From NCBI RefSeq assembly GCF_963921235.1, contig NC_086108.1, forward strand, positions 69,504,001-69,568,000: DNA of 64,000 nt, read 5' to 3'. Positions within the stretch are counted from its first letter, which is position 1. Each line of letters opens with the position of its first letter. Made by a program: the position numbers and the translations under genes. Below are positions 3,888 through 62,292 of this stretch, one piece after another. The notes under the pieces were generated by a model. That model ran no database searches and was not told the DNA's origin. It was given only the letters and a program-made list of their open reading frames with translations. Origin of the DNA: Mobula hypostoma (taxonomy: Eukaryota).

Positions 3888-3964
3888 CTGTGATAGTGTA
3901 TTAAAATTTGCAAATCCACTTCCAAATGAATCATTTCCAAACACTGAGACAAAAGGATCAGTAA
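3888..3964 (-). CDS. EPS15: EPS15 coding exon (77 nt): (V)TDPFVSVFGNDSFGSGFANFNTLSQ
   Basis: tgtttcag|TT acceptor, CAG|gtaatt donor, phase 1-0; similar to human TDPFASVFGNESFGGGFADFSTLSK. Later exons lie beyond the window start. Confidence 0.95.
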
Positions 3965-5564
3965 CTGAAACACAGAAAGGATGTGATATCAGTATCATTA
4001 CAAAAACAATTCTTTTGATGCCCATTTCAGATAACTAATGTCAATCATAGCAGCTACGTTGAACTGCAATCACATTAGCAAACATAGTCTAGAACACAGT
4101 GCAAACTATTCTCAAAAGATTTCTGACAGGCGCCTCAAATGTGGGAAAATATTGGATATGTGCTCACTGATAAAATATAAAAAGGCAAATGGGACTCAAG
4201 CCATGTTGTACTTAATTCACAGGAAATCACATACTTCCATGAGCATATGTTATGGCACTATTATATATTTAAATGTACATGGGGAGAAGTACACAAGAAA
4301 GATATTTTTGACGTTCAGAGTATACTTGGATGCACAATCTCTTAAGGTGCATTAACATTAATATAGGTAAATTGTTTTGCAATGTTGCTGCAGTTACGGT
4401 AAAGACTATTTGCAAAGAATTTCACTGCTTACAAAATGTTTTCAAATGCCCAAAGGGTGCTAAAACTGCAATGTATATATGAAATCATTTTGCACTTGGG
4501 CTAGGAAATAGGAAGAGCATGGCAAAGAAGGAGGGAAGGCCTGCTTGCCAGGAGCAACAATGGATGGGATTTTGCGTAGCTTATTTCATACGGCTGTCAT
4601 TAACATTATTTAGCCACATATTCTAACCTTCATAGAAAGTAACTTCTACACAATAAAGATAAACGCAATTAATTTGGTTGTGGTTAATGAGAGATCTACC
4701 AGCATGTTGTGAAACTCTCCTCTGTTTTTAAATCAATAAGAGTGACAGAAGGAAAATCCATTGGTCCAGTTAGTTTATCTCATGTAGAGGTGATGACCCA
4801 TGCATCACAGAACAGACACTCCCCGTTCTGCTGAGAGATAAAAAAGATGAAAACCAGGTAGAGCGCTTACAATCTGGAAAACTCATCTCCAACCTCATCA
4901 CGTGATCAAGAGCAGCTCAAGGTGTCTCACCTACCTCAATTTACAAGACATCTTGAGCTTCTACCAGCAGCAACAAACAAGTTGAGTCTTCACTTGAATT
5001 CTGGCCTCTTGAACATCTTTTATGTTTTTCAAAGCCATACCCAAGTGCCAAGGCTCAAACCTTGAAACACTTCTCCAAACTTTGCACTGGTCAACCTCTT
5101 CAATTCAAAATCTCTCTCTTTGGCCAATTCTTTGGCTATCTGGCTCATAGCAGAAGCCCCTTAACTTGTACTACGGGTATACTGTTAAAACCGTCCATTA
5201 ATATACAATTTTGTTTTAATCTTGCATAAGCTGTACGTATGACAGAGGACCAGGGGACATGAACTAAGATAACTTCCTCACACATTCAGAAACTAGCTTT
5301 TCAATTACTTCACAAACAATTTTCTAAGGTTCTTGCTTTTTTAAAACCATAGAGAAGTCCCCACCCATACATATAAGTTTCAGTTTGAGAAATATCTATG
5401 TAACATACTCTGCCCACTTTTCGAAATCTCAATATCCTCATATGCAAGGACCACAGTTTAGTAACTTGGGGTTATTTAATGTCTTGCACAAGGACAAAAT
5501 AGTTGGCTTTGTTTTGCAGTGGATTGTTCCTATGAACAAAACCAAGAACTTTATTGCTTAGATA

Positions 5565-5820
5565 GCAACCATGTGGCAGTACCTCATCTTCTGGCAGTTC
5601 ATTCCACTCGTCTGCCACTCTCTAATGAGTAATATCACCCCACAGGTTCTCTTTAAATCTTTCCCCTCTCACCTTAAACCTTCTAATCTTAAACTTTCCT
5701 TATCTGTGCCCCTCAGGATTTTACATACCTCTATAAGATCACCCCTCAGCCTCCTACACTCTAGGAAAAATAACGCTTGCCCACCCAATCTCTCCTTTTA
5801 ACTCAACCCCTCCAGTTCCA
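5565..5820 (-). mobile_element. Decayed CR1 3' fragment
   Basis: Similar to the 3' part of 14227-14970 (acctctataagatcacccctcagcctcctac...). Confidence 0.55.
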
Positions 5821-6696
5821 ATTACATGTGTATTCAGTTTTTGTGTGAAACATCTTATAATTATTCTTTTTAAATTCCGCGATAAAATTCAATTCACTAG
5901 ATGTGGGGTGCTAATTAGTCACATATGGCTAATAGTCAATATAATAGACAACAGTGCATTATGGGGAAAAGATTGGGCAGGCACATTGTTTACGTGCCCA
6001 ACACCAGACTCCCAAAACCAACACTCTAGTCTAATTCTACCTGAGAAAAGTTTGCCAGGTAGACAAGGATTTTCTCAAAATCTCCTTGGAAAAACTGTAA
6101 TATTTCTCCCCAATTCCTGGAAAAACTGTCTAGAATATCTAAAGAGGAACATTCGGGAGAGGAACCTCAAATCCATAGTCATAGTCATACTTTATTGATC
6201 CCGGGGGAAATTGGTTTTCGTTACAGTTGCACCATAAATAATTAAATAGTAATAAAACCATAAATAGTTAAATAGTAATATGTAAATTATGCCAGGAATT
6301 TATATTAGGAGACCAAGAAAGCCCAAGGAAGGTACACACCATTTCATAAACTACCCACCCCATCACCCTTGCATCTCCTGCTCGGAGGAAGATAACAAAA
6401 TTTTCACATTAGCATCATCAGAACCCACAGAACATGAGTAGAAGCAGGCATCCTTGGTCCTGAGTGAGTGCTTATGAAAGACAGTGGGAATTGGTTTACA
6501 GAAAATTTGGGACAACTCATGGAAAGGCTAGAGATACAGATAAACTGGAAAGGTGGAGCACTAAAAAGGGCAGTAACAGTGAGTGCAAAGGAATGGCGAC
6601 ATGTGAATGACAACATGAATACCTAATTAGCTAATTTCTGTAAACAACAGAAGGCTGACATAACAGTATTAATCATTGTTAACTTAAATTTCTCAC

Positions 6697-6766
6697 CTGC
6701 ATCAGCAGTGGATGAGACTGTACCACCACCAGGAACAAATGGATCATTGGCATTTATTGCTTCTGT
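6697..6766 (-). CDS. EPS15: EPS15 coding exon (70 nt): TEAINANDPFVPGGGTVSSTADA
   Basis: ttttag|ACA acceptor, CAG|gtgaga donor, phase 0-1; similar to human NDPFAPGGTVV. Confidence 0.92.
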
Positions 6767-7324
6767 CTAAAATCAAATGTATATAAACGTAACTCTAAAC
6801 TTTGTTTTATATACAGTGAAAATTCAGAAAACTGAAAAATCAGATGTTTTATATTGATGTATATATTGCTATGTAAAAGAAATCCCAATTTGTTCGGGAT
6901 ACGCAGAATCAAGACATTGGAACTTAGTCCATAAAAATATTTAATAGCCATGGTGCACACCTTCAGACACCCAGCCCAAAGACATAAGGCAAAGGTCAAT
7001 TGATTCCAAACAATTGGATTATTGATCATTATAGAATGTCTCTCTGATTCTATTTATTATAAATTATTATAAATTACTATGATCGCACATTTAGACAAAT
7101 GTAAAGATTTTTACTCCTCATGTATGTGAAGGATATAAGAAATGAAGTCAATTCAATTTAATTCCACCCCCTTCCCCTATTTCCAGCCATGATTTCCCTC
7201 TCCCTGCCCCATTTCCACTCTCAGTTCACAATAGAGACCCACATCAGAATCAGGTTTATGATCACTCATATGTCATGAAATCTTTTTTTGAGGCAACAGT
7301 ACAGTGCAATACATAAAATTACTA

Positions 7325-7391
7325 CAGTACTGTGCAAAACTCTTAGGCACCTTAGCTATATATATGTGCCCAAGATTTTTGCACAGTACTG
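7325..7391. mobile_element. 67-bp Tc1/mariner-type hairpin MITE
   Basis: TA|CAGTACTGTGCAAAACTCTTAGGCAC ... GTGCCCAAGATTTTTGCACAGTACTG|TA: ~26-bp imperfect TIRs, TA TSD, 15-nt spacer. Confidence 0.8.
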
Positions 7392-8537
7392 TACCAATTA
7401 TCACAAAACATCCAAAGAGGGATTTCAGATATCTCCCAAAAGTAAGGAAGTTTTACAAACAAAGGAAAACAGAAGTTCCTCTTGGATTCTTGATACCATT
7501 CAAAAAGTGCCGCTGAGTTGAACCGATGATCTTATAATTTATGTTCCTGTTGTATGTACGGCCCTGCCTGTGATGAGTTAGCGGATATCCGGGAAAACCA
7601 ATGACACTGTATCAATCCTAGTTATTTTTTCTAAATATAATACACACTAAATTTGTGGACTGAGCATGGAAGACAAAAATTTCCAGGAGAAAGATTACTC
7701 CATTGAAGATCTTACCATTCAATAGCACGTATCCAAAAAATTTCAGTGCTCTTTTAATTTTGGCTCAAATCAAGAGTTCATGGGTCATGCAATTCAGAGG
7801 AAACATTGTCAAGGCAAAGTATTGAAGTAAATGATACTTTTGTAACTGTATTGAATCACCTATTGATCTCAAGGACATAAAATGTGATGTACTTTTGAGC
7901 TTGTTTTGATGAATAAAGACTTCTATATCACCAGGTTCAGTGTTTCTCCAGTGACTTTGACCACAGACTCAACAGCTCCAAACAGACCTCAGCCTGGGGT
8001 TGGGAACCTTGCTCAGGTAGATGCCTTTGCTCACCTCTTTACAGCGGACTTCCACGCATCAATCTAATTTCCTGCCTCCTCATTCCAATTTGACTTTGGC
8101 TGAGGCTGTGAATTAACCATCACCTTCTTAGACCTGGCGCCAAGTCCTAGGGTTGCCTTTGTATGCTTGGTAATAGGTCAGCATGCAAAAGGAAGTGTGC
8201 AAGGGCCACTCTTTGTCCAGGCCTCAGGCCTCAGGCCTCACTGAATTTTGCAACAACAGACTCTCAAAATGAACAATATTCCTGAAACAAATTTCTAGGC
8301 CATGTTCTACAGAACTGTTTCAAAACGTATTCATTTTCAGGATGTGGCATTTGTTGTTAAAAACAATTAATGCCCATCGCTAATTGCCCTTGAGCAAAAC
8401 AGTTTGCTCTGTTAGGTCTGCTTTGAAGTCACAAGGATCAGTCTTGGTAAGGACAGCAGCTTTCTTTCCCCAAGGAATATTGATCAACCAGTTAGTTTTT
8501 AAAATGTGTGTGTGTGGGGGGGGGGGGCAGAGTTATG

Positions 8538-9350
8538 ATGGCACTAGTCAGCGACGACTTTGAGCTCTCTGCAGAAACATTAATTTCTACATTTAATGTC
8601 TCTTTTTTTCCCTTTTCAAGGTGGATGGGGTTCTGTCAAAGACTCTGACCTGGAGCTACACTCAATCTTCGGTTCTTTATAATGTTGGTTCCTGCTCTCG
8701 GCTGTTTTATCATATCGCAAGGACAGGGCCTAGAAGATGAGTATGCCTTCAGGGTTCCGAGACTTTGCGGCCCTGGGAACAAGTTGATTATAAGCCAGGA
8801 ACACCAATTGAAACGTCACTGGATTAAACAGAATATCAGGAACAGTGGATCAGCTTTGGGGGCTCTCTACTTGGATCACTCTCTCTCTTTCTCTTGTTGG
8901 TGGGGAAGAGCTTGTTACTCGGGGAAATAAAGCAATTCGGCAGACATTAACATCGTAAATCAGCGAGTTGTTTTGTTTCTGTCTCCTCTCTCGCTGTGTA
9001 ACACCTCTGTGCCCCTTTATCAGGAAGAGAGAGCCTGTGGCATGTTGAATTGTTGGGTGAACAATTAGTTTTTGTTGTATTGCAGATCATGGTTTCTCTT
9101 GGGGGCTTTGCTATTGCTTCTTGGTGGGTGGAGGCTGCTGCTGTGTTATGCTGAATGGGGTGGGGGAGGGGGAGGGGTCGGTGCTTTGCCGCTGCTTGTA
9201 CATGGGAGGAGGAGTGGGGGGGCTTTGGGGTTCTAACATTGTTATTGTTACTTATTCTTTGGGGTACTCTTCTGTTTTTTGTGGATGTCTGCGAAGAACA
9301 AGAATTTCGGGCTGTATGTTATATATATTCTCTGATATTACATGGAACGA
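8538..9350 (+). mobile_element. Non-autonomous non-LTR repeat, copy 1 (homologous to 20510-21310)
   Basis: Shared blocks gtaaatcagcgagttg..., gagagcctgtgg.atgttgaattgt, gggggctttgctattgctt and gaagaacaagaatttc; no long ORF. Confidence 0.7.
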
Positions 9351-9747
9351 TTGAACTACTGATCCAGTGGCTTCTGGGCTAATATTATTGACTCAAGGTT
9401 ACATCAACTAAATTCAAATGCCCCAGTTTTGGCAACAACATCTAAACTCTCAGTTCTTCCGGCAATTGATAGTCCCGTAATGTAATCAATAAGTAACCCC
9501 TTGGATTTAAGACTTAGATCCAGCTTTTTTTTTAAAGACACTGTATTATGGGTGGAACTTACTCTGATAAAGATTATTCTGCTCTTCTATTTCATTATTA
9601 ACTGGAACTTACAGCCCAGCAAGGTTTGCAGTGGTAATCACTTCATTCCATACTATTATGCTGGCTGCCTTATCAGCTTTAGATTGGTTTCTTTGTATTT
9701 TGTTTAACAATAATGGCAACTGAATACATAATATGTCCCATACTTAC

Positions 9748-9893
9748 TGATTCCACATTAGTATTGGTTAATGTATTATTGAAAAGATCACCCTCTGTGG
9801 CTGTAAACGGGTCATTTGCAGACTGCTGAAAGAAGTTATCAGAGGCATCAGCAAAAGGGTCTGTGCCTTTAAAAGGATCACCTCCAAAAGGAT
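9748..9893 (-). CDS. EPS15: EPS15 coding exon (146 nt), DPF repeats: (D)PFGGDPFKGTDPFADASDNFFQQSANDPFTATEGDLFNNTLTNTNVES
   Basis: tttgcag|AT acceptor, TCA|gtaagt donor, phase 1-0; similar to human DPFGGDPFKGSDPFASDCFFRQSTDPF. Confidence 0.96.
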
Positions 9894-11899
9894 CTGCAAA
9901 ACACCATAACAAAAATTATAGCACAATCAAAAAACAAGTTATAGCAGAGATGATGCCTACTGTAATTATCAGTTAGCTCTGAGCTCACTAGAAATAATTA
10001 TTAAGCCCAGATATGCAAGACAAAATTCCTCCAAATGTAGGCTAAATGTATTCAAACAAATAGCTTCATGACATTCTGGTTCAGGGTCTATGATCAGAGA
10101 TATTCTCTCAGCTTCTCTTTAAACAGGTCCTTTAAACCGACTGAGTGTTCCCAGCCGTTTCTGGTTTTAATTTCATATTTTCAGTATGTACAGTTTTTGG
10201 ATTTTCAAGCTTCCTGTTGTAACTAAGAGAGCTCAGGAAAAATTGCAAACATTTATACCCAGTGAGCAGGTTCCACCCATTTGAATGTCATAACCTGTAG
10301 TTGTCCAAGTTCCAAGTGGAACACCAGTAAGAGTTTTTGAGAGGATCAGGGGCTGTTTATACTGCAAAAAATCCACCACAGAATGAATGAAGTTTCACAA
10401 ACAAGAAAAAGTAGTTCTTAAAAATTCAGTTTGAACAATTTTATCCTCCTTTGAGAACATCACCTTTTAAAGTTATGAAAGCCAGTAATTTTTTTTAATT
10501 TCCAGATTACATCAAATTACTAGCATAACATTTCATAGCTAGATTTGCAGATGAACTGGTAAGTTCTTAAACTGGCAAGCTGTTAAACTAGAATGATTAC
10601 TCTCCCATCCTTGTCTCCTGCACTTTTGCTTTCCCTCCTTAGTTTAATAAACACTGTAATAATAAACATTATTTACTTGCGCAGCACATTGGCATTTCTT
10701 TCCACAGCAGATGTGGCCATTGCATGATGTGTAAATGAGACACACAGGGAATACAATGAATCACTTTTACTATAAGGTTAAAATATGAATATGAATTGAC
10801 AGGCACCAATATTTCCGACACAAATTTCGAATACTGGCTACAGAATGAGACTTAAAAATGGTGGAGATAGAGCAGGAAATTCCTCACTGTTCTCTCTCAA
10901 TTTTTTATTAGTTCATGATATGTGAAGTTTGATATGATGTTTTTGTATACAGCGAGTACCTGATTAGCTCACTCCAATGGAGATCTAAGCAAATATCAGG
11001 TCTTTCCTCCTAAGTAATGCACATGACACATACCTAACCTTTCATTCCCTTGAGTGTAGAAGAGCGCTGACAGCATTTACATTATTTCTATGCAATGCTA
11101 ATTCAGGCTGGCCTTCACATGCTTATATGCTCATCCTGTTCACCAGTCACTGAATATCTGCTGATCTATAACGGTTTCTCTGCAGTAACTCAGTTTTAAA
11201 ATTGTTACGCTTACATTCTACTTTCTCTGTGCTGTCATTTCTTCCTGCCTTTGTACTCTCCTCCCGTCCCAATAGCTTTGAGGTATCTGTGCAGTTCAAA
11301 TACTGGCATCATTTGCAGCTTAATTTTAATTACTCCACCACCTGTGCTGGTGCCTTCACTTGCCAGGGCCCCATGATCTGAAGTCTCTACCCTAAATCAC
11401 TCCACCAGTCTACCCATTTCTCATCATTTAAGGTGCTCCTTAAAGCCTAGCCCATGGCCAGGTTTTGGTCACCTGTCCTGAATTTTCATGTGTGGCTTGA
11501 ATCAATATTCTTCTCTAAAGTGCCCTAGGAGCTTTTGCTCCATCAAAAATGTGTATAGGGCTGGTGTAGCAGAAATTTAACATTTGAATTTTCCTGACAA
11601 ATGTGTCATCATGATTGTAAGTAATAAAAATCAGAACATTATATACTTGAACTGATCTTATTGTAAGAATAGATAAGCAGTTTGATGCCAATAAACATCA
11701 CGTTAAGCATTAAATAAAATTGCCATGCCTCAACTAAAACTGTTTATCTCTCATTACACCATGCATGACCCCACAACAAAAGCTCTGCTATCTTTTAAAA
11801 ACTGTCTCACCTTATTTAGAGTTGAGAGAAAGAATCGGCTTTATATTCAGTCCCATTCCATCCCCATTATTTTCTTGCAAGGCATTGTACTGTCTTATT

Positions 11900-12130
11900 T
11901 CTCATAGATCTATCAATTACCCTTTGATTCTTTTTGGCACTTTAGACTAAGGAGAAATTTATGGTAGCCTACAGCAAATCTTTGGGAAGTGAGAGGAAAC
12001 TAGAGCAACTACCGGAAACCTTGCCCTCACAGGGAGAAATTGAGCACTGCACACAAGAACAAAGCACCTGAGATCAGGATCAAACCTGGGAGCTTCAAGG
12101 CAGCAATGCTAACTGCAATGTCACGTTGTC
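11900..12130 (-). mobile_element. tRNA-derived SINE (V-SINE/HE1-like), decayed
   Basis: Minus strand: gttagcattgctgcc...ccaggtttgatcc (box A/B-like) then tttcctctcacttcccaaaga. Related copies at ~30720-30900 (-), ~46290-46450 (-) and ~54838-55060 (+). Confidence 0.6.
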
Positions 12131-12195
12131 TGTCCTAGTGCACATTCAGTGAAACAGCTTCAGGTGGAAGTAACTTGCAATTTTTTTTTCCTTAC

Positions 12196-12240
12196 CTGCA
12201 ATGTCAACCTTCCCAAATAGATCATCCTTAAAGGGATCAT
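12196..12240 (-). CDS. EPS15: EPS15 small coding exon (45 nt): (N)DPFKDDLFGKVDIA
   Basis: tttttccctag|AT acceptor, CAG|gtaagg donor, phase 1-1; similar to human SDPFKDDPFGKI. Confidence 0.93.
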
Positions 12241-12566
12241 CTAGGGAAAAAAATAATTAAATTAAATGATGTTTAAAGAATAACTTTTTCAAGAATAGAT
12301 CAACAACAATTACACAGGGACATGTGTGTTTTATTGTGCAATCATGTTCCTTATCTGAAAACTATTGCTGCTTTTTTGTGTATTATATAGTTAATATTTA
12401 ATATTTTCTTTACTTTAGCAAAGAATGTGAAATGACTGATTCTGAATTGGGAAAGGAGTGAAAAGGAAAGATAAGGCAAGGTGGAAGGGTAGGGCTTGTG
12501 GAGAGGGTAAAGGAAGAGAAAGGAGAAAGTGAAAAATGGAGGGGATGGAGACAATTGTCGGAGGAA

Positions 12567-12591
12567 AGAGAGAGAGAGAGAGAGAGAGAGA
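12567..12591. repeat. (AG)n microsatellite
   Basis: About 12 perfect AG units, seen directly. Confidence 0.95.
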
Positions 12592-14226
12592 TTAAGGGGA
12601 GCGCATACGAAGCAAGGCAGATGAGCAGAAATACTGGATACTGGCAATGAGATCGCAAGTTGAATTTTGTTTTGAGAGTGTGAACTGTTGCGCACTCAGT
12701 GTTATGCACTCTAATTGGGTTCAGGTTCCTCAGTGCTTTTGACACTTGCAATCAGGTTTTGTGCCAAAAGATTGCTCACAGCAGGTAAACTGTACCTTCT
12801 GAAAGGAGGTTACAGCAGCGTTGCCATAGGTGCTATTTGAAATGCACATTGTGGAAGTACTAACAGAGCTTACAAGCTTAGTTGATTGCTGAACAGCTCC
12901 TTATGAACAATGAACAATGGTTCCTTGTCATATGTATTGAGTTAGTGTGATTATCAAATATGATACACCTTTTATTCAGAGTGGCCATCTGAAAGGGTTG
13001 TATTACATTGCTGGAGTATCTATGTACATATGAACATTCACATAAAGCTGTTTCATTCAGTTTATTTATTAGTCACATTATAGAAGATTTATCTATCTTA
13101 TTTCTCTGGCAACTTCTATCTTACTGTTTTATCATTTCTACACTATCATTGCCTTGCAGTACCTTAGAGCTATTTTGCAAGTCATGTTTCCTTATCATGT
13201 GCCAAAACAGTGACCACTATATTACAAGTTTGGTGGGGGTGGGGGGGGAGGGGGGAGGTTATTGGATTCCTCAGTCTGTGTCATTATTTCCGTAACACAC
13301 AGTAGCAGCATCAATGCATGGGTCAAGTATGTGCAGGAAAAAAATAATTTTGTATTGATTTGTAACATATATTCAGTGAAAGTGAATTTTATTCAATAGG
13401 TCAAATTCTTGGGGGATCATTTGTGAATTCTGTGAGGGAAAGTTTCATAACCCAAATGTGAAGCACAGGTCAACTATGATTGGGGATTTTGAATTACTGG
13501 AGAAAATCAAAATGGTAGAACTACATAATTTACGATATAGTCCTCCAGAGCAAACTCCACATGACAGCAATAAAGACTAGGGCTTATGACTGTCTATTAA
13601 CCGCCTCTTAACTCTGAGAAGATGTTCAGTATCAAAAGTAAAGTGGGGGAGAAAAAGTGTCAGGACCTTGCAGCAAGAGAATCCACCACGCACAATGGGT
13701 AAAATACACGTTTTTTTTCACCAAGTTGTTATAAATCTTTTTGGCTTGAAAAAGATTGGAATTACTTTTAATACTGACATGAATTGAATTTCAATATATG
13801 AGCTGAAAATTTTAAATTCAAGTAATCAATTAAGCCTAATCAGTTACATTGGCCATGAAACTACCGGACTGTTACGATTATTTGGTTCAATTATGTCAGA
13901 GGAAGAAATATGCCAGAATTCCCAACTGAGATCCATACACGAAACCAGATCTACATAATGTACTTAACTCTAATTGTCTTTTGAAGTGGTTCAGTGGGCC
14001 ATTAGTAATGTTCAATAAACATTGGTCTTGCCTATATCATAAACAGCCAACGAACGAATTATAAAAATCATTAAGTTAGGATGGTCTCAAGTGCTTTGAA
14101 ACTAATTGATTGGTGAAATATAATTGCATCCTAAGTCAATAAATAAATGATTATTAACTATCTTAAGCACCAATTATTTTGGAATCTGTAGTAGTATGTT
14201 TAATTGGAAATTCAAAATGCAAGCTT

Positions 14227-14970
14227 TAGAAACAAAGAAAACCTACAGCACAATACAGGCCCTTTGGCCCACAAAGCTGTGCCGAACACGTCCTTACCTT
14301 AGAAATTACCTAGGGTTACCCATAGTCCTCTATTTTTCTTAGCTCCATGTATGTATCCAGAAGACCCTATCGTATCCACCTCCACCGCCATTACTGGCAG
14401 CCCATTCCATGCACTCACCACTCCCTGCGTAAAAAAAACTTACCCCTGACATCTCCTCTGTACCTACTTCCAAGCACCTTAAAACTGTCCCCTTTCATGC
14501 TAGGCATTTCAGCCCTGGGAAAAAGCCTCTGACTATCCACACGATCAATGCTTCTCATCATCTTGTACACCTCTATCAGGTCAACTCTCATCCTCCATCG
14601 CTCCAAGGAGAAAAGGCCGAGTTCACTCAACCTATTCTCATAAGGCATGCTCCCCAGTCCAGGCAACATCCTTGTAAATCTCCTCTGCAACCTTTCGATA
14701 GTTTCCACATTCTTCCTGTAGTGAGGCAACCAGAACTGAGCACAGTACTCCAAGAGGGGTCTGACCAGGGTCCTATATAGCTGCAACATTACCTCTGGGC
14801 TCCTAAACTCAATCCCACAATTGATGAAGGCCAGTGCACCATATGCCTTCTTAACCACACAGTCAACCTGCGCAACAGCTTTGAGTGTCCTATGGATTCG
14901 GACCCCAAGATCCCTCTGATCCTCCACACTGCCAAGAGTCTTACCATTAATACTATATTCTTCCATCATA
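14227..14970 (-). mobile_element. CR1 LINE 3' end, 5'-truncated
   Basis: ORF 14415-15005 has QRDLGV, LYRTLVRPLLEYCAQFWLPHY and LERWRMRVDLIEVYKMM; short TTCTA-type tail. Confidence 0.92.
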
Positions 14971-15177
14971 TTTGACCTCTTTAGCACTGGTTTATTTTGC
15001 AGCATTTTGTACTACAACAAATGAAATTCTATTTTAATTTCTCTTTTATTAGAAGTTTGATTTGGCCATGGTGCAGGAAGCTCAGATGTTTTTATTTCAT
15101 ACATCTGCTGAAAAATGTCCCAGCTCTATGTAAAGAAAATATTAAGTTTCAAAAGGAGATCAAAAAAGTGAACTTAC

Positions 15178-15268
15178 TTCCAGTGAACGGATCTGTTTGA
15201 AAGAAGTCTAGGTTGGGGTCTGTGATATTGTTGGGGTATTCACTACGTTTCATATCAAAAGGATCTTC
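15178..15268 (-). CDS. EPS15: EPS15 coding exon (91 nt), DPF region: EDPFDMKRSEYPNNITDPNLDFFQTDPFTG
   Basis: tttgtag|GAA acceptor, GAA|gtaagt donor, phase 0-1; similar to human EDPF...DTNLDFFQSDPFVG. Confidence 0.95.
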
Positions 15269-16002
15269 CTACAAAAATTAAAAATATGTATTTATGTATA
15301 AGAGTACATACTGGTTAAATTTTGGATATTTCTTTCCAGATATATATGCTTCTGATTGCAAAGACACCTTTATCAGATGACTATCAAACATTTAAGCCAA
15401 ATATTCTCAGTAGAAATCGACAATATTCAAAACATTTTAAAAGCAATTTTGATGAATAAAAAATACTTCAAAATTAAAAACCAAATTGCATCAACTATAT
15501 TAAAGCTAAGCAATAAAAAATTCAGAGAATTTTCATATTCCCAATTTAATTTCAGCTAAATAATATGCCTTGACCATCTGAAACATGTTTGTAAAAGTAT
15601 AAAAGGAAACAACCTTTCCTAAAATTGTTGGTGTTCAACTATATATCAGTGCGTGGCATTACAGTGTTTAACTGACAATAAAGTGTTGGCTTGCATCTCG
15701 ATTTCTTTCAAATCCCTTTCAAATTCAACCAGTACTTCCAAACTGTATAAAATTTATCAGAACTGCAAGACATAGCACTTAGCAAAATCAAATATTTCAA
15801 ATGACTATATAGGAATATGAGTGAGAGCTAAATTAAGAACTAAACTGATACTTCTGTCCGAAAGCAAAACTTACATTTAATGATTGAATCAAGCCTGGAG
15901 AGAGAGACAATTCCAACAATCACACCCCAGCCCAAAAACCTAAACAGTAATTTTAATCAACATTCATGCACTATGCAAGAAAATGTCCATAACCAAACTC
16001 AC

Positions 16003-16095
16003 CTTTTCTGCAAGACTGGGTTGCTGAATTTCAGTCTGTTCTGTCTTCATCATCGGTGTTGTGCTAAGGGTGGGTTCAGCAATGCTGTTGTTGAC
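16003..16095 (-). CDS. EPS15: EPS15 coding exon (93 nt), low-conservation linker: VNNSIAEPTLSTTPMMKTEQTEIQQPSLAEK
   Basis: tttccag|GTC acceptor, AAG|gtgagt consensus donor, phase 0-0, stop-free, in the position expected for the linker exon; peptide similarity is weak. Confidence 0.78.
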
Positions 16096-18325
16096 CTGGA
16101 AACAATATTCACACAAATGCATTGCTGAAAACTGAAAAGGCTCAATGAAAATAAATGGATAAATACCCATCATATAAAGAGTGTTAAGTGCATATGTAGT
16201 ACTATCATCAACAACTACTTGATTGCAAAGGGGGAAGTTTAACCAGGCATGAGGAAAAAGATCTACAAAATAAACAAGGCACAAATAACTCATTGTAAGC
16301 ACCAAATTGAAATGCATTACGGCTCCAACTTCCTGAATTATAACATTAATAGCTAGGATGAACAAACATAGCCAATAGACTTCAATTGAATTGATTTTAA
16401 TCATTTGATTTTCAATTATTGTTCAAGTCAGTGCCACTTGTCTTCTAGAAACTGTTCTCCAGTGGGATTTCTATCAGTATCTTTTACTTGGCTGACCCTC
16501 AATGGTTTCAGTTTCCTTCCTTGTTTTCAATAAGGTGTTGATCAAAACATGCTTCCATTGCCACATCTCTTTCCTTAGCTGATGTCATAACTATTAAATA
16601 GATGGCTCTGAAAGCATTTGTGACATACACAATTTTGCTCCTTACAATTACAAACAAGGATACTTCTTGTGTTCTCTCTCTCTCTGGAACTTAAACACAC
16701 TTTTCTCACTTCTCCAGTTCTGATAAAGGGTCACTTTCCTGAAATGTTAATGCTGTTTCCCTCTCCACAGAATGTGCCAGATTTGCAAATTAATTGCAAC
16801 ACCTTTTTATTTTTATATGGGAAATGGAGAGATGGGACGAGGATATTTTGTTCCCATTTCTGTTAAACACTGTTTATGGAATTCTGAAGCATTAATCAAG
16901 TTGGGATTCTGGCAAATTAGAAGCAAATCTCAAAATCCGAAAATAACTTAAGTGTCCCACCTGGGATATGTGGTTCAGTTCCCAGAGCCCCTGGACCTAG
17001 GACAACCAGCTAGGAATTGATCAGCCTATCAACATTATTTTGTGTGACAAGTAAGGTTGCAAGATAAAGTTTGTGAACCCTTTGGAATTACCAGGTTCCC
17101 TGCCCTATAAATAAAAAGACACACAAAGTCGGGTTACAGACAGAGCCTGCTCTTCTCAAGAAAGATCTGTTTATGTACACCATGCCTCAATCACAACAAC
17201 TTTCAGAGGACCCTAGGACCACCGTAGAGATGCATGAAGCTAGAAAAGGCTACAATAACACTCCTAAAAGACCTGAGTATTTATCAGTACACAGTAAGAG
17301 AAATTGTCTACAAATGGAAGAAATTCAGTACTACTCTCCCTAGAAGTGGGCATCCTGCAAAAAACACACCAAGAGCACAATGTGCAATGCTGAAGGAGGA
17401 GAAAAAGAATCCAAAGGCAACAGTAAGGGACCTGCAGAAATCTCAAGAACTTCTCTGAAGTCTCTGTTCATGTGTCCACTATAAGAAAAATACTGAATAA
17501 GAATGGTGTTCATGGAAGGACACCACGGAGGAAACCACCCCTCTCCAAAAAAAATAGCTTGCACGTCTCAAGTTTGCAAAAGACTACCTGGATGTTCAAC
17601 AACGCTTCCGGGACAATGCTCTGTGGATACATGAGACAAAAGCTGAACTTCTTGGCAGAAATGCATACCACTATGTTTGGAGAAAAAAGGGCACTGCACA
17701 CCAACACCAAAACTTCATTCCAACTGTGAAGCATGGTGGAAGAAGCATCATGGTTGGAGGCTGCTTTGCTGCCTCAGGGCCTGGACAGCTTGCAAACGTT
17801 GAGGGAACAATGAATTCAATATTGCATCAGGATATTTTACAGGAAAATGTCCGGGTAGCGGTCCATCACGTGATGCTTAATAGAAGTTGGAAGAAGCAAC
17901 AAATCGATGATCCGAAACACAAGAGTAAATCAATTACAGGATGGTTGAAAAAAGAAGAAAATGTGTGTTTTGGAATGGCCAAATCAGAATCCAGACCTTG
18001 ACCCAATTGAGATGCTGTGGCATGATCTAAAGAGGGCTGCTCATGCAAGGTATTCCAGAAATATTGATGAACTGAAACAGTTTTATATGAAAGAATGGTC
18101 TAAAATTCCTCCTTGCCATTGTGCAAGTCTGATCAGTGGCTACAGGAAATGCTTGTGGAGGTTATTACTGCTAACGGAGGTTCTACCAGCTATTAAATAC
18201 AAGGATTCACATACTTTTTCCAGCCTACACTGTGAGTGATTAAACAATGTGTTCAACAAAGACATGAAAACTTTGTGTGTTATTAGTTTAGGCAGACTGT
18301 GTTTGTCTGTTATTGTGACTTAGAT

Positions 18326-19060
18326 CGGGGTCCCCAACCTTTTTTGCACCGCAGACCGGTTTAATACTGACAATATTCTTGTGGAACGGCCAACGGGGGG
18401 GTGTTCAAGTAGGGTTAAACTCACCTCAAAATGTCTTTTACAGATAGGGTTGCCAACTTTCTCAGTCCCAAATAAGGGACAAAAGAAGCAGTCAAATCCT
18501 GGGACACTTTACCACAAAAAGACTACCATGACCATGAAGCCTTGCGTATCTGCGTATGTGCCGATTTTTTTCCCCAAATCGGTTTTGCCTTCATCTTCCC
18601 GACTACACTGTATATACATTACTTTTACTTTATATAGGCTGTGTATTTATCATATCATTCCTGCTTTTACTATATGTTAGTGTTATTTTTGTTTTATGTG
18701 TTATTTGGTAGGTTATTTTTTGGGTCTGGGAACGCTCAAAAATTTTTCCCATATAAGTTAATGGTACAGTAATCGCTTCTGCGCTTTACGCCATTTCAGC
18801 ATGAAAGGTTTCACAGGAACGCTCTACCTTAGCGGGGGAAATATGGGACAAGGGCAGTCCTGTATGGGACAAACCAATTTAGCCCAATATACAGGATGTT
18901 CTGGCTAATACAGGACAGTTGGCAACCCTACGTTCATGTTCAATGGTGCGTGACAGGGAGTGAGGAAAGGTGCAGCTGACTCATATCGTTTCCTCACGGC
19001 CCGGTAGCACATGCTTTGTGGCCCGGTACCAGTCCGCGGTACAGTGGTTGGGGACCGCTG
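18326..19060. mobile_element. hAT (Charlie-like) MITE inserted in the Tc1
   Basis: TIRs cggggtccccaacc / ggttggggaccgctg; perfect 8-bp TSD ACTTAGAT at 18318-18325 and 19061-19068. Confidence 0.9.
18445..18930. mobile_element. hAT-type MITE (TAGGGTTGCCAACT ends) nested in the Charlie-like MITE
   Basis: 14-bp TIRs; inverted homolog of 24444-24962; no TSD visible at this copy. Confidence 0.85.
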
Positions 19061-19392
19061 ACTTAGATGAAGATCAGACCACATTTTATGAGTGTTTAAT
19101 GCAGAGAACCAAGTAATTGCAAAGGGACACAAACCTTTTCTTACAATGCATACTGTGCAGACTATCATTTGCAACCATGTGATTTCTTTCAAAGTTAAGT
19201 TTTCCACTCCAATTTTTAACTCCTTGATGTAGAGAGCAGAAAATAAACTTGACTGGCCTTTGAAATGTCACTTATTGGTTGTACTAACTGCTTGAAACTG
19301 AAGGCCAGGGAATTCACGAAATAGTGCAGTTTATATTTATGAACAAAATTATTTCAAATACAGCTGATTTGAAGTGATTGAAAATGTCTTAC

Positions 19393-19593
19393 CACAGGCT
19401 CAATAATGGTCTCTTCTTTCTCCAACGGACTTTGCCTCTCTGTATTTTCCTTCTGCTCACTGGACTCGCCAACACTGTTGTTCAGATCACAGTGCTCAGC
19501 ACTGCCATTGACAAGAGGTGGCAGTTGACTCTGCCACCTGAGTTGATTGTTTGTGCTTTCCTCGTTGTGCAACTCAGACAACTTGGACTTCGC
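19393..19593 (-). CDS. EPS15: EPS15 coding exon (201 nt): AKSKLSELHNEESTNNQLRWQSQLPPLVNGSAEHCDLNNSVGESSEQKENTERQSPLEKEETIIEPV
   Basis: tgaaag|GCG acceptor, GTG|gtaaga donor, phase 0-0; QLxW...LVNG..xxC pattern as in human EPS15. Confidence 0.9.
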
Positions 19594-20509
19594 CTTTCAA
19601 ATACAAAACTCAAGGAATTATTTAACATGCTTAAAATACCTAGATGACAGGTAGACAATCTGAAATGCTTATAAATACTAAGACAACCAGTGTTCAATGT
19701 GTAAGTGACATTAATGTGGCATGGGGAAAATGGAGCTTAGCGCCCCACCCCTTCATCACATTCCACCTATAATCTATTAGCCCTCGTCTCACCCTTTCCT
19801 CTCAATTTTACATACTAGCCAACCTCCCTTTAAATATTCAGTCTGATAGCGTTGACCCAAAATCTTGACAGTCCCTTTGCCTTCACAGATGCTAATTGAC
19901 CCATCAGTTCTTCCAGTAGATTTTTATTGCTCCAGCTTCTATCATCTGCAGTCTCTTGTATTTCCAATAACCAAAAGCAGTTCAGACATGTATGCACACA
20001 ATCCCTTAACAAGCTTTGCTTATTTTAGAGCATAGCTAGCTATTTTCAGCAAGGCACACATAATACATTCGGGCTTCTTTGGCTGCCAGTTGTTAAGGTG
20101 CCATTCTAGTTCACTTGTGCAGCCTATGATTGTAGACGATTAAGCCAGCTGATATCCACACAAGTTGACAGCTAGGATGTCTCTGAGCTGACTTGCACCA
20201 CGATCCTGGTTAACATCATGTCTAATTTCAAATTATAACACTCATTTTCAAACCTTTTCATGTCTCACTGTTCCACCTTTCTGTAATCACTTCTAGCTTT
20301 TGCAGCCCTAATATCTGCACTCTCCGACTCTCCATTCCCTGCAAATTTGATAGGTTTATCTTCAAGGACCTTGCAATCTGGCACTCCATAAGAAAGCTCC
20401 CTCTTTTTACGCTTTTGAAAGCTAGCTTTCTCGATACTTTTTTATGGTCATGGACCTCCAGGCAGAATACACTCCATCTACTACCATTCTCTCTTCTATG
20501 GCTAGGCGA

Positions 20510-25530: not shown

Positions 25531-25692
25531 CAACTGTGTCTCCTCTATGCATTTCTGCCTGATGTCATTTAACTGCTCCTCCAGTTTGTTCTTCTGTTGA
25601 TCCAAGTCATTGAGCACATCCTGTACTTCTTGCCTCTGCTCCTGTAATTTTTGTAGGTTTGTGCTTTCCTTATTGACTTCATCTTGGAGATC
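25531..25692 (-). CDS. EPS15: EPS15 coding exon (162 nt), coiled coil: DLQDEVNKESTNLQKLQEQRQEVQDVLNDLDQQKNKLEEQLNDIRQKCIEETQL
   Basis: ttgcag|GAT acceptor, TTG|gtaagt donor, phase 0-0; heptad-rich and similar to human DLQDEVQRENTNLQKLQAQKQQVQ... Confidence 0.96.
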
Positions 25693-55515: not shown

Positions 55516-58500
55516 TTACTTCTTTGTTAGCTGCAATTCTGAACTGCTTGTCTCATCACCCCACCCAAGGGAGCTGAAAAACTCCAAATACAGAAAGCAT
55601 CCAAACCCAACATAACCAACATTTAATGGTTACATTAGCACTGCCGCAAAGTAACACTGCCTAGAAATTCTTTAGAATGTGCAGTTCTTTGCCTAAACTG
55701 TCAAAGCCAATTATTTTTGACAATGTGATTAAAGTGGCTATCAATAAATCCTCCACCCATGAACTTAATACAAGACATATGTGTTTCTATGCAAAGAAAT
55801 CCTGAATTCCAACAAACATATTCATCCACTTGCACACAATTTGTGGCTTACAAGTCTGATTACCAGGCTATGGGGATCAATCACAGGGATTACCAGGTCT
55901 TTATAGATAGTGATGCTGCTGCAAAGTAACCTTATCATTAACCACGTGCATACATGTAATTGCGCACAGGATAATAAAGTCGATTTTTTGACTTTTGATG
56001 TTACTCGTTTCAACAGCCATATTCTCTCAAATTAACCAATTTTCAAAAAAGGAAAAGCAGGGAGAAGAGCATGCAATTAGGATGTGAATTAGAACCATGT
56101 GCCAGTGCACGTCATCAGTACAGTGAAATGACTAATAACTTTGGTTTACGGCAAACTTGACTCAGTAGAGATGCATTGCCTCATCTACATTACATTTCTC
56201 TCCAGTTCTCATTTTAGACATGAAAGTTTAACCAATCTAAAGCCAACAGAATGAAACATCACACAAATAAAGAATGTTAACAATGAATTGCATCAATCAT
56301 ACAGAAGGATTGTGTCAAAACCTGGCTAGCCAGAATCAAGAAATGTTTTAAAGATGGACAAGGGCCAAAGTGTTACAGATGTTACACTTGCAGATGTAGG
56401 GCTCAAAGATCTGAATTCACAGAAAAGGATCAACAATTAAATAGTTCACCAGGCTAGGCCAGATTTAATTGGATTTCTACTTTTAATATAACTGATCTGA
56501 GGGAGGTGATTGCATTCCCAGAAAATGATCTGTACTATAATTTCCCGTAACATGAAGCCAAATCATCAGTGCATGAGTCAAGAATTAGGAGTTTAAAAAA
56601 AAATAAATTTTTGTGTTGATTTGATCAGACATAAGCATTGTACCAAACTCAGGCCATCAAGAAACAAGAGATGTTTTAAACATGGACAAGAACCAGGTGG
56701 ATCTTATGTCTTGAGAAGTTGGGAAGATTGTAGCCAATTCCTCAAATTCCCTGACTTCCCTCAGCAACAAAACATTTTGAATTCTCCTCTCAAGGCTTGA
56801 ATGTACTAGGATTGTGAATGGCCAGTCACTGAGTATATTAAAGGCTAAATCTGATAAGATTTATGGACACTGTAATCAAGGGATATGACTAAAGGCATAC
56901 TATCGGCCATGACATTACCGAAAAGTGGAGGAACTTTGAAGTGCCATGTGGCTCATTCCCCTTTCATCTCTTTTGTTAATCCTGAGAAGTTTCAGCTGCT
57001 CCTCTTAGAGTGCTTAAAACATTAGCTCAACCTTTCTGCATCTTTCTTGTCATCGGCAGCTTTCACTTAATAACTACGTCCATTGTTGCCTCAAGCCCGA
57101 TTGTGTGAAGAAACTGGAATTTCAAGCCAACTTGCTAGCTTTTGGAATGAAACCTTCAATAGGATTTAGTCTTAGCTCAGTTATCACTTTGGAATAAATA
57201 GGTAGTAGATGGCCATTCAAAAGCTTGTTACACGTTTTTGTTTAAATTCAGTGCCACATAGGAAATATCATACTACCACAGTTTTTATCAGAACCATTCA
57301 TTTAAAGAGTCATCAATGCTTTCAGGTGAACACAAGTATCACACATTACCACTTAAAAACGAGCTGCTTTTCCAGTGCCTCGATCATGTTATCCTTCAAC
57401 CACTATCATTAACACAAATAATTCTTTCAGTTATGACAATGTACATGACACTTCAATGTGTGAAAACTGGTGCTGAATTTCATTACATCACATCAATGAG
57501 CAGCTCACTGACTGCAAATTACTTTGAGATGATGTTGGTATATTTTTAAAAAGGGTATATGAAAGGGAACAATGTCCATAACTGATACAGATAGTGCACA
57601 GCATTTCCCTCTTGCACTATTATAAATTATACTGTAATGCACGTCCATCAGAGTAAAGGCCACAATTTAAAGTTCACATGGAAAGCAAACTTTATTTCAA
57701 GAAAAACAACGCTGGCCAGCTTAAAATGTATGAACAATTTACTAATTTGTAAATGAAATCAGTTATCGTCATAAATAGCTGCATCTATCCGGATTCCCAG
57801 GAAGAATAATTCAGCAGTTACCTCAAAAGGTGACAATTTAGTTCAGTGGGTGAACGTCAGAACTATCATCTGGAGTCCAAATTATGCAACAGCAACACAG
57901 CTTTGTATGAGAATTTCTCACCTTCCACGTGACTCTGCACTATACACCTCCTCCACTAAGACGGTGGTTAAGCAACATATTGGAAGTCCTTTTCTCAATC
58001 CATTTTGAAATCTGGCATCAAATGCACAAATGTAATCTGGGACTATTTTTTTCCCCCACCCATATTGTGTAAAAACCTCCAGACTCCCGTTTCATAACTC
58101 TCCATTATAGTGTGATGAAAACAGAAGTGTTAAATGCATTCAGACAACCTCGCATTTGACTATCAAAATGCATTTCCCTTCTGAAGTAACCAAATATTAT
58201 TCAAAATCAAACAAATTTAATAATTTATCTAAATTACACAGTATCTTGAAAATCTGCAGTATCCACTCAATAAAAACAGACCCTGTAGCACTGGCAAATG
58301 GTGTTTTTACTGCCTGCTGTACTCAGCAATTCCGTTTTTGAAAACTGAAGCAAAATTTTTATATATATCAGAATTGCAATAATTTACAGTATTTAAAGGT
58401 ATTAAGAGTAGACATTCTCAAGCTGGTATGATGATGCTGCTAAATATAACCAAGGTAAACGGAAACAGAAGAATGAGTGGGAGGGCTCATGAAAGAATAT

Positions 58501-59427
58501 CAAATTGTACAGATTATAATATTTTGCCAAAAACCTCAAAAGACATATTAAGCAAAAATATTAGATTTGCTCTTATAATTCTCTTAGGAAGCTTTCATAA
58601 ATGTAATACAATCATTCATTTTGAATTGAATTCTACCACACAATAACAATGCAGCTACATTTCTCTGAGCTATCCTAGCTGCGTCATGCAATTGAAATCT
58701 GGTATGATGTTTAATGAAAGAATTTCACTTTGGAGCTGGTCATGATATGGAAATCCTAATGACGTTTTATCATTCATAACCAACAATAAAAAAGGTAATG
58801 TTTGCCCCTTACTATCCCCTCTTCAACTATGCTACCATCTCCATTAATGACATCTTAGTAGCTGGGGTAAACAGAACTTAATTTTAAGAAACGGCCTCCT
58901 AAACTGTTTATTGATTAACTAATGTTGATTGCTGCAAGTATCCTTAGAGCTGAGAATAATTCGATGCTCACAGGGAATCTGACAAACTGTATTAGACTCT
59001 TAAATATCAATGTGCTTGTTGATGCCTCAAGCAAAAATATTAAGCAAAAAGCTCTTGTACAAATTTTGTTCAAGCTAAAAAGTCACTGTACTTGAACAAT
59101 TAGAAAATATGCATTTGATACAACAGATTCACTATTTAGGTAATTTTTCAAATTTTTCATCTGTCTTAATAGGTATATTTGAAAATTATAAAACTTATTT
59201 TTCACCAACAGTAATCCGTATTTTTCATCTTGAAAAACAGCTACTGCTTGGCTTCAGTGAAAATTCTGCATGACCTACCTGACAGTTATCCTAACTAAAA
59301 CCCTTCACGGACAGTAAAATCAGCAAAATCTCAGCATCTGAAAAACAGTCTGAAAATCCAGCAAGGACAGCATGACTTTGCAGATGCTGATCACTTAACT
59401 TAAACAAGTGGTGCAATTAATACTTGC

Positions 59428-59500
59428 CTGGACCTCACTCGTTCGCTGCTTGACCGCTTCTTCCTTTTCTTTGATTTCCACTTCAACAGTGCTTTTCTCC
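59428..59500 (-). CDS. EPS15: EPS15 coding exon (73 nt), start of coiled coil: (R)EKSTVEVEIKEKEEAVKQRTSEVQ
   Basis: Acceptor ...ggtcttctag|G, starting in phase 2; donor CAG|gcaagt (GC donor). Peptide resembles human EPS15 REKNNVEQDLKEKEDTIKQRTSEVQ (recalled). Confidence 0.93.
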
Positions 59501-59598
59501 CTAGAAGACCAGCAAACAAGGCAAGTATACTTAAGGACATCAGCTACAGCAGGAACAGCTAACCAGCTCCCAAATCCTGACTCGCCCTTCAAATGCAT
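59428..59598 (-). CDS. EPS15: Eps15b-type alternative first coding exon: MHLKGESGFGSWLAVPAVADVLKYTCLVCWSS + REKST...SEVQ
   Basis: ATG at 59598-59596 opens 57 stop-free codons that read through the exon acceptor in frame. The first 32 aa resemble the recalled human Eps15b N-terminus MYLKSDSGLGGWITIPAVADVLKYSCIVCWSS. Confidence 0.85.
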
Positions 59599-61777
59599 CG
59601 TCTTACAGTGAGCTAGTGCTTGAAAGGAAACTGGGAAGGTTATCAATAACCTTTTAAACTACGAATGAAATGCCTGATTTCAGTGAGGAATGAAAATGCC
59701 TGATATCTGAAAGGGTTCTGTGAAATACAGAGTCGAAAATCAATGAGACTATTTTTCATCACAAATGTCACTGTTGCTATGGAGCTGTTGGCTAATCAAA
59801 GCTAGAGTTTATAGGAAGAGGAGGAGCTAAAAGCATCATCCCACCATTAAACTATATTTTATACAAAACTAAATTTTAAACTACCAATACACAAATATTT
59901 TGATTAGTATTAAAACAATAGATATTCAAAGCACGTTTGTAAAAATATTGTACTTTAATTTATAGATTACATTTTTAAAAGAATTTTCAGAATATAACAG
60001 AAATATTATTCTTTTCTGTTTAAAGATTTTGTCTGCAAAACAGGAATGTTGTTAAATCTTACAACATACACGAATTGTGGCCTTCTTATATATTTTAATT
60101 ACTTCATTTGTATTCTCAATTTAACATTGCATCACATTAATGGCATGAAAATGTTTGCAAAATTTTAATCGAGTATGAAGTCACCACTAATGAGAATCTG
60201 ACAGTGCACAGACATGGCTGACAATTTTATTTTGATCTGTCAATTGTCTTTTGAACCTCATAACACATACCTCTCTTCTCCCCACCCCCCAACCCCTGAT
60301 AATTTTCAGACTCACCGGTCATCGGGTGAAGAGCGGTGCCGTGGAGATTTTAAACAATCTCTTACCACTCGCATCATCTTTGCGGTGCATTCTAACTTGG
60401 CACTCAGCTCAGCTTCAGAAGTGTGGAGTTTAAGATCAAATGCATATCAATTGAATGTCATGAGTGAATCCTATGACTGCATACCTGCATGATATAATCA
60501 GCAGAGGCTGATGTTCTCCAACAATTGTAAGCCTGCCCTCTCTCACCACATACGCAGACAAGGGTTTCAGATTCTACAGAATCCCTTCAGAAACCAGGAA
60601 ATAATAGTCACGTGGAAAGCAACCTAGCCCGGGAGACATGCCACACTGCATAGTCATTCATTTAATTTCATGTGGTGAGCTTTGTGGAAAGGTGGGGGGG
60701 GGAAGAGAGGAATAATGAAGAGGATACAAAACAGGTTTCCTGAATTGCCCTAATGATATTTGATTGTGATATTTTTTTTAAAAAGAGAGTTGCCTGGTAT
60801 GTACAATTGTTTAACTACACCGTAGCAGCAGCTTGCTAAGGGAATCGTTATATAAATAGAAGGTGGTTACCAAGCCTGTGAGCCAGATGAAGTAATTTAC
60901 AGTGGTGAAGACAGCAGTGGCAGGGAGATAACAGGTCATCTGAAGTAAGCTGGCAGTCGATAACAATAGACCAAAAGGTAGTTTATTAAGAAAAGGCTAT
61001 GAAATGATAGCACAAATATTAAATTATGGTTTTATTCTTTAAATACAAAATTAATATATCATTGCTCATTTGCAGATTTGTCGAGCGCATCATGCATCTG
61101 CAAATATTGAACTAGAAATCATTTATTTCTTCAAATAAAGCTCTTGAGAATTTTTTCCAAGTTTTAAACAGCTGATGCATTAGGTTTTAACTGAGGTTCT
61201 AAATATTATTGATGATGGCAACCCAAGAATTTTTAAAGACAAATTGCTTGCTCGTTCTCACCAAAATGTGGAAGGTATTTATTATGCAAATGCCTCACAA
61301 TTTATTTATCATTGAATAAGACAACCAGGACCTGATTTAGCTTAAAAAAAACAGAATGTCACCAAATGTATCCAAGATAAAACAAGTTGCTACATACATC
61401 AAAAGAACTAGCTCAAATACATGTTCTTATGTTAATAAATGACTTATTAGCAAGTGTGAGTCTGCAAATCTAGGCCCAAATGTCAATCGTGAAGGACTAG
61501 AGGCCCAGAGTCCTGGGGTTGGATGCCTGTGCGAGTGAGAGGAATGGGAAAAAGAGCTTATTTTGGTGCTGTTGTTGTTGATGCTGTTTGTGTGTTCTGT
61601 GGAACACTGTGGGCATGCTGTTTTTGCCGGAATGTGCGACAGCACTTGCAGGCTGCCCTCAGCACATCCTTGGGGGCACTGGTTGTTATTGCAAATGATG
61701 CATTTCTATATTTTGATCCATATGCGATAAAGAAATCGGAATCGGATTCAGAACCTGTAATCTGAATTTGAAGTGAG

Positions 61778-62125
61778 TCAGAATCAAAATTAACATCATT
61801 GGCATATGTCATGAAATTTGTTAAACTTGCGGCAGCATTATTATTCAGAAATAACTGAATTACAATAATTATATGTTTATTAAATAGTTAAGTTAAAATA
61901 CGTAGTGTAAAAACAGAACACCAGAGGTGGTGTTCACGGGTTCAATGCCCGTTTAGAAATCAGATGGCAGAGGGGAAGAAGCTGTTCCTGAATCACTGAG
62001 TGTATGCCTTCAGGCTCCTGTACCTCCTTTCCTGATGGTAACAATGAGAAGAGGGCATGTCCTGGGTGGTGGGGGGTCCTTAATGATGGACGCTGCCTTC
62101 CTGAGGCACCGCTCCTTGAAGACGT
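61778..62125 (-). mobile_element. Rex-Babar 3' fragment
   Basis: Minus peptide DVFKERCLRKAASIIKDPP...; same family as 27900-28270. Confidence 0.8.
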
Positions 62126-62292
62126 CTGCAGACAGCAAGTAACATGTGTGCCTCAAAAATAAATATGTACAAAAATGAATTTTAACATATCCCAACATTT
62201 TAATGTTGCCGAGTCCCACTATAAGTATCCTAAAGGTCACGTTGACCAGGAATTCAACTTGACCAACCACATAGCAACACTATGCCCACAAG

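Follow-up and report, generated by a model that had tools for sequence, protein, structure and literature searches.

Introduction

Eps15b is a known isoform of EPS15 that lacks the EH domains and begins with 32 unique residues encoded by the 3′ end of intron 12 (Roxrud et al., 2008; PMC2373575). The data given there are for human, macaque, mouse, cow and chicken, and the abstract speaks of "conservation across vertebrate species". Human Eps15b is located on early endosomes, co-precipitates with Hrs, shows little AP-2 binding and is required for EGFR degradation (PMC2373575). According to the same source, the two isoforms bind Hrs equally in vitro, Eps15 deprived of its EH domains is cytosolic and the endosomal site of Eps15b was termed unanticipated; its authors found no known motif in the 32 residues, and offered the oligomer state as the cause of the poor AP-2 binding. 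In the literature accessible to us Eps15b has been little followed up, and one later study failed to detect it reliably. A search of the literature that included PMC2373575, PMC4181756, PMC2767346 and PMC6912373, and in which subscription journals were thinly covered, yielded no paper dealing with Eps15b in fishes or with its acylation.

The DNA analyzed here is a 64,000-nucleotide stretch from Mobula hypostoma, a myliobatiform ray and thus a cartilaginous fish (hereafter, the window). On its minus strand, a segment at the end of EPS15 intron 12 is, judging from sequence comparison, very probably the ray orthologue of the alternative first coding segment of Eps15b.

Results

The EPS15 Gene in the Window

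Upon tblastn of Mobula EPS15, ten exons of the window (59502 to 3888) were found to match cartilaginous-fish EPS15. The best of 12 ray and skate proteins was that of Mobula hypostoma, XP_062920410.1 (929 aa), identical at 391 of 401 residues (97.5%) over the ten exons; identity to sharks is 72–79%, and to amniotes 43–60%. Matches to proteins named EPS15 identify the gene as EPS15 and not EPS15L1, and the exon 12 junction at 59502 places the segment at the intron 12/exon 13 boundary. Exon numbers are those of human EPS15, transferred by homology; exon 12 is outside the window. The following exons were located:

59428..59500, minus strand: EPS15 exon 13 (73 nt), where the coiled coil begins; its donor is GC (all 25 residues agree with ray EPS15 383–407; loose ends of X3 and X5 contigs at 59427)
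25531..25692, minus strand: EPS15 exon 14, coiled coil, 33.7 kb 3′ of exon 13 (homology, contig junction)
21643..21840, minus strand: EPS15 exon 15, coiled coil (homology)
within 3888..19596, minus strand: seven more EPS15 exons, at about 19596–19384, 16095–16003, 15268–15176, 12250–12197, 9897–9748, 6766–6698 and 3968–3888 (tblastn of Mobula EPS15)

The DPF-rich region is encoded within the last seven. The UIM exons had no match in the window by tblastn of Mobula EPS15; inspected by eye, the ray full-length proteins end in a UIM-like tail. Searches with the protein of exon 14 returned generic coiled-coil matches only.

Contigs from 4 of 18 sequencing runs were aligned to the window (X1, X3, X5 and X12, from organisms A, B, C and D, respectively); their RNA status is a guess, none being on record as RNA. 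The loose ends of the X3 and X5 contigs at 59427 match exon 14 exactly from its first base, 25692, and define the exon 13–14 junction. The GC donor of exon 13 (59427–59426, minus strand), which opens a 33.7-kb intron, is hence backed by contigs from organisms B and C, whereas the one other locus that was read, L001, has GT at this place. Teleost and amniote read-through ORFs continue with Val after exon 13, which implies a GT donor.

The locus is repeat-rich, except for approximately 6.5 kb around exon 13 (55200–61770) in which no repeat common to the rest of the window was detected (56001–64000 tested). Within intron 13, the plus strand carries at 31768–37997 an element antisense to EPS15, with ORFs of 375, 762 and 386 aa, the second of them with a broken frame, and an insertion near 36000–36800; we take it to be a LINE-1-like retrotransposon. 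A fragmented plus-strand element of the same intron (40400–45000), with similar ends near 40424–40741 and 44728–45033, is presumably a Gypsy-like LTR element, and we assume that 17077–18239 and 47950–48850 are broken Tc1-like transposase fragments.

A Reading Frame That Overlaps the Exon 13 Acceptor

Three features overlap or adjoin at the end of intron 12:

59503..59598, minus strand: Eps15b-specific coding segment (32 codons from the ATG), also the 3′ end of EPS15 intron 12 (translation, homology)
59501..59502, minus strand: acceptor AG of exon 13, serving full-length EPS15; in Eps15b, bases 1 and 2 of the Arg33 codon, AG plus G (loose end of an X1 contig at 59502)
59503..59543, minus strand: pentamer resembling a branch point (A at 59540, −40), together with a pyrimidine-rich tract, over codons 19–32 (pattern scan)

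Translation of the minus strand between 59428 and 59598 gives 57 stop-free residues, namely the 32-residue peptide and exon 13. The peptide ATG, at 59598 and with A at −3, lies 98 nt 5′ of the first base of exon 13 (59500), and codon 32 ends at 59503. A preliminary description of this DNA had proposed an ATG 98 nt before the acceptor in frame with exon 13, and it had also claimed that the peptide doubles as the 3′ splice region of full-length EPS15. Both proposals hold: no stop interrupts the 32 codons, and the loose end of the X1 contig at 59502 translates to the exon 12 end of ray EPS15 proteins. The pentamer with A at 59540, the sole YTNAY match within 59560–59501, is the putative branch point. 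An open frame of this kind is commonplace: an in-frame ATG at least 25 codons upstream, with the frame open, precedes 30 of the 255 acceptor-like sites that the window has on its minus strand; the case for the peptide therefore rests on homology.

Homology to Amniote Eps15b

A search with the chimaera protein provided the amniote sequences for comparison. Among the 120 matches listed (of 277), at least 8 carry the Cys-Trp motif, and in six of these it belongs to the N-terminus of an EH-less protein of 528–585 residues. The six Eps15b-type proteins belong to turkey, cormorant, woodpecker, Dromiciops, beaver and bank vole. Their 32-mers were compared with the window: the first 32 residues of all six (6/6) map exactly to 59598–59503 with E values of about 1e-15 (1.7e-16 to 9.9e-15 against the window), 22–23 of 32 residues being identical to the ray (69–72%) without gaps, while the next-best match in the window has an E value of 0.004 or worse. 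Ray and amniote peptides share the same Met, the same length and 20 columns that are invariant in all seven sequences. The mammalian 32-mer cited in the preliminary description proved identical, at every residue, to the N-terminus of the beaver entry P0069.

Turkey and vole share 27 of the 32 residues, equal to the 84% of the bird–mammal alignment of Roxrud et al. (2008; PMC2373575). The qPCR primer specific to human Eps15b that these authors give matches the window at 17 of 18 bases (59525–59508; next best, 13/18); the amniote set includes no entry named human. In the same six comparisons, the constitutive exons from exon 14 onward are 34–75% identical, vs. 69–72% for the peptide. No EH match was found in the named Eps15b-type protein P0062, vs. 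three in full-length P0198. In the ray, the peptide joins at residue 383 of EPS15, which predicts a short form without the three EH domains and with the coiled coil and the DPF exons.

Range Among Vertebrates and Age

A phmmer search against 1.84 billion representatives gave 37 matches, 36 of them consisting of this peptide followed by EPS15 exon 13; the top match, P0002, is a repeat protein and was dropped. Named matches are from Callorhinchus (C. milii), Neolamprologus, Xiphophorus and Paramormyrops; most of the remainder are read-through ORFs of genomic-type contigs, to which a teleost origin is assigned from their likeness to the named models. A teleost-centred search found the peptide in 17 of the 120 matches listed (of 226). 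Carriers of the peptide are thus ray, chimaera, teleosts, birds, a marsupial and rodents. As it is common to ray, chimaera, teleosts and amniotes, the peptide predates the split between cartilaginous and bony fishes, and its presence in the last common ancestor of living jawed vertebrates is supported by the sequences compared. That ancestor lived about 450 million years ago. The Eps15b isoform itself probably dates from the first jawed vertebrates, in agreement with the preliminary description. The range refers to jawed vertebrates, the named matches being without lamprey, hagfish, amphibians, lungfish, coelacanth and EPS15L1.

The peptide is absent from all 73 other EPS15 entries of cartilaginous fishes that were compared (one cluster of 50 being listed in part), so that the isoform was passed over when these genes were annotated; it is probably lacking from the annotations of sharks and rays. 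Three chimaera models hold the last ~15 residues of the peptide. The models P0025, P0032, P0036, P0073, P0236–P0248 and P0255, in which part of the peptide stands in full-length EPS15 in place of exon 12, are probably annotation artefacts.

In Paramormyrops kingsleyae (P0033, P0047–P0060; XP_023674771-8), all 15 listed members of a 19-member cluster are 617–649 aa long. Fourteen of these 15 start with the Eps15b-type N-terminus, and P0049 has another first exon; the two members that were scanned gave no EH match, and a UIM-like tail was seen by eye in none of those listed. This EH-less locus may be a gene duplicate in which the short form alone survives. P0038 is a divergent copy resembling these proteins.

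Other searches with the peptide added little. A word-index search with residues 1–40 returned no match, a failure of sensitivity given the many relatives found with phmmer and the chimaera protein; the ESM Atlas gave no usable match, and Pfam and PDB gave nothing. A scan of metagenomes yielded, among 597 pattern matches, one locus, which ends inside exon 13.

Coding Selection and Splice Constraint

Conservation of the segment could stem from splice signals or from a non-coding regulatory element, the frame being incidental. Codons 19–32 do overlap the branch-point-like site and the pyrimidine tract, and residue 32 is limited to S, P, F or Y among the matches, all of which can end in a pyrimidine before AG; this variation at residue 32 is, from the sequences, a real trace of splice constraint. 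In organism D, moreover, the segment has 9 differences in 154 positions, no lower than some flanks (4/156 to 21/224). Against such an explanation stand the codons 5′ of the branch-point region: codons 1–18 are identical at 11/18 and 10/18 positions to the amniote-type sequences P0003 and P0004, respectively. The ten differences from each have a mean BLOSUM62 of 1.4 and 0.8, whereas a null in which mutation is blind to codons and proceeds to the same difference count averages −0.76. About half of 5000 runs met a stop; of the stop-free ones, 0/2485 and 8/2463 reached the observed values with kappa 2, and 0/2494 and 7/2560 with kappa 4. The claim that the peptide is under selection thus finds support in changes far more conservative than those expected without regard to codons.

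Further evidence comes from the fishes. Teleost peptides vary in length by in-frame changes, and yet the Met, Trp and Cys motifs stay in one frame; the matches having been chosen by protein similarity, loci with frameshifts or a lost Cys would escape. The Trp codon inside the pyrimidine tract is kept in 33 of the 36 phmmer matches. Of 13 fish sequences whose upstream residues are visible, 12 retain the homologous Met (P0030 has Ile), after removal by eye of five non-homologous internal Met, one of them following a pyrimidine-first codon, and with 13 Paramormyrops repeats counted as one. All 12 have a purine-first codon before the Met and Val after it, a Kozak-like pattern to be read against a background of 36% purine-first and 23% ambiguous codons and among sequences that are related and not independent. 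For human Eps15b a cDNA, ESTs and a 120-kDa protein have been published (PMC2373575). We consider an incidental frame extremely improbable; protein-level purifying selection on the predicted peptide across jawed vertebrates is supported.

Transcripts and Start Site

Beginning at 59918 or 59862, contigs of organisms A, B and C extend across the ATG and the acceptor to 59473–59474, with 0, 2 and 10 differences and no gaps, and a contig of organism D covers 59510–59663 with 9 differences and no gaps; as these were counted without positions inside the 96 nt, stops are possible in organisms B to D. The contigs with the peptide overlap exon 13 by 27–28 bases, under the 31-base rule, and no single record bridges the peptide, exon 13 and exon 14. 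X1 and X12 (organisms A and D) cover both flanking introns, as expected of DNA or pre-mRNA. X3 and X5 (organisms B and C) cover in pieces the region from 59474 to about 61400–61750, ~2 kb upstream, which is compatible with an RNA retaining intron 12 as well as with a separate first exon. In both runs the end of intron 12 is covered and the first 1.85 kb of intron 13 is not; this would fit a spliced Eps15b-type RNA, a weak hint which, being a blank in contigs, was not counted as evidence.

Upstream of the ATG we mark a single, weak candidate:

59599..59918, minus strand: putative 5′ leader and promoter for the short isoform (AT-rich; TATAAA-like hexamers near 59813 and 59964)

A start site at 59918, where contigs of X1 and X5 end 46 bases below a TATAAA-like hexamer, was not called, as no DNA run was compared and the stretch is very AT-rich.

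The peptide might be coding and orthologous but reached otherwise, through an RNA retaining intron 12 or a start more than 2 kb upstream, or be made only in rare tissues. The piecewise coverage by X3 and X5 up to about 61400–61750 agrees with a distant start, as does the result that 54000–64000 contains no CpG island (observed/expected at most 0.51). Contigs, however, cannot show starts and may merge several RNAs; the five ATGs within 59990–59599 would hinder scanning from a distant cap; and the human start lies 245 nt above the acceptor (PMC2373575), an alternative exon whose length in the ray would reach about 59745. We therefore regard such an indirect route as unlikely.

About 850–1000 nt above the acceptor, the non-coding stretch 60347–60502 has 4/156 differences in organism D, vs. 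5–9% elsewhere. It may be a regulatory element.

Discussion

Proposed Function of the Peptide

For full-length mRNA, the last 98 nt of intron 12 are removed by splicing and provide the exon 13 acceptor; the same nucleotides contain a conserved ATG and 32 codons that continue in frame into exon 13. By analogy with human Eps15b, an RNA starting inside intron 12, or keeping its 3′ end, would be translated from the ATG at 59598. The predicted product of ~580 residues would comprise the 32 residues and residues 383–929 of Mobula EPS15, with coiled coil, DPF repeats and UIMs and no EH domains, and could act at endosomes with Hrs in the sorting of ubiquitinated receptors, as its human counterpart suggests. 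Equal Hrs binding in vitro and the cytosolic location of EH-deleted Eps15 imply that a positive endosomal signal is missing from the account, and we infer that the conserved peptide is the obvious candidate. We tentatively propose that it anchors the protein to membranes, as a hydrophobic helix that closes with two Cys and a Trp and is probably S-acylated. Located where the dimeric coiled coil begins, it would take the place of the polar segment of full-length EPS15. Mean hydropathy of residues 12–30 is 1.29–1.40 in ray, turkey, beaver and three fish sequences, vs. 0.0 for the corresponding residues of full-length EPS15.

A helix that binds other proteins or prolongs the coiled coil, setting the oligomer state or the choice of partner (Hrs/STAM vs. 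AP-2) with no lipid involved, is a real but somewhat doubtful possibility. It agrees with the published suggestion that oligomer state underlies poor AP-2 binding (PMC2373575) and with an AlphaFold model in which a single helix spans residues 16–45 into the coiled coil, a model of low confidence (mean pLDDT 55.6) that is too weak to decide between functions. Most teleost versions (23 of 38 distinct 14-mers), however, have a Pro just before the coiled coil that breaks the continuity of the helix, and the equal Hrs binding of both isoforms in vitro, reported in the same source, does not favour a role in partner choice. In our opinion it is quite improbable that the CxxC motifs of both chains in a parallel dimer coordinate zinc, or act as a redox clasp, at the tip of the coiled coil. 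Zinc hooks provide the analogy for this idea. CxxC spacing is found in ray, chimaera, amniotes and most teleosts, and His replaces one Cys in two single-Cys variants (P0030, P0037), but Arg does so in P0019 and P0034, and the spacing is CxC in P0006, P0008, P0009 and P0011. Among the 36 phmmer matches, all have at least one Cys, four keep one only, which may be either of the two, three gain a third and four have a shorter spacing; these were counted there and not among the 38 14-mers, whose filter required Cys (P0049 having a different first exon). Such a pattern of loss, spacing and gain suggests, at the sequence level, S-acylation rather than a fixed zinc site.

Carried further, the membrane-anchor reading becomes a scenario that we consider speculative and, taken as a whole, doubtful: the peptide would be an ancient S-acylated anchor that has shared its DNA with a constitutive splice acceptor since the jawed-vertebrate ancestor and supplies the missing endosomal signal, and after the teleost genome duplication one EPS15 copy would, in certain fishes (Paramormyrops), have lost the EH domains and kept only the short form.

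Comparison With Known Systems

The isoform, its origin in intron 12 and its conservation between birds and mammals were already published (PMC2373575). What is new is the range (ray, chimaera and teleosts), the evidence that selection for coding acts where a splice acceptor also lies and a hypothesis of endosomal targeting at the level of residues; the result widens the range of a known isoform and is not a new system. From ray to mammal the 32 residues are conserved to the same degree as the constitutive exons next to them, which argues for the importance of the isoform and of this peptide, and W12, P17, Y24, C26, C29 and W30 are singled out for the question left open in 2008, that of Eps15b targeting to endosomes.

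Several database models, namely Callorhinchus milii UniRef A0A4W3IEP6, teleost UniRef models, Paramormyrops XP_023674771-8 and goodeid models, have the same motif directly before exon 13; in most of them a portion of the peptide replaces exon 12 within a protein that has EH domains, and none is named Eps15b. Full-length ray EPS15 has three EH domains and the polar segment of exon 12, where Eps15b has the hydrophobic peptide. With respect to published Eps15b, the ray form shares the origin in intron 12, the ATG in frame with exon 13, the length of the unique N-terminus (32 residues, 22–23 of them identical to named amniote entries), the predicted lack of EH domains and the size (~580 residues predicted vs. 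582); it differs in the GC donor of exon 13, where L001 has GT, and in belonging to a lineage outside the published species.
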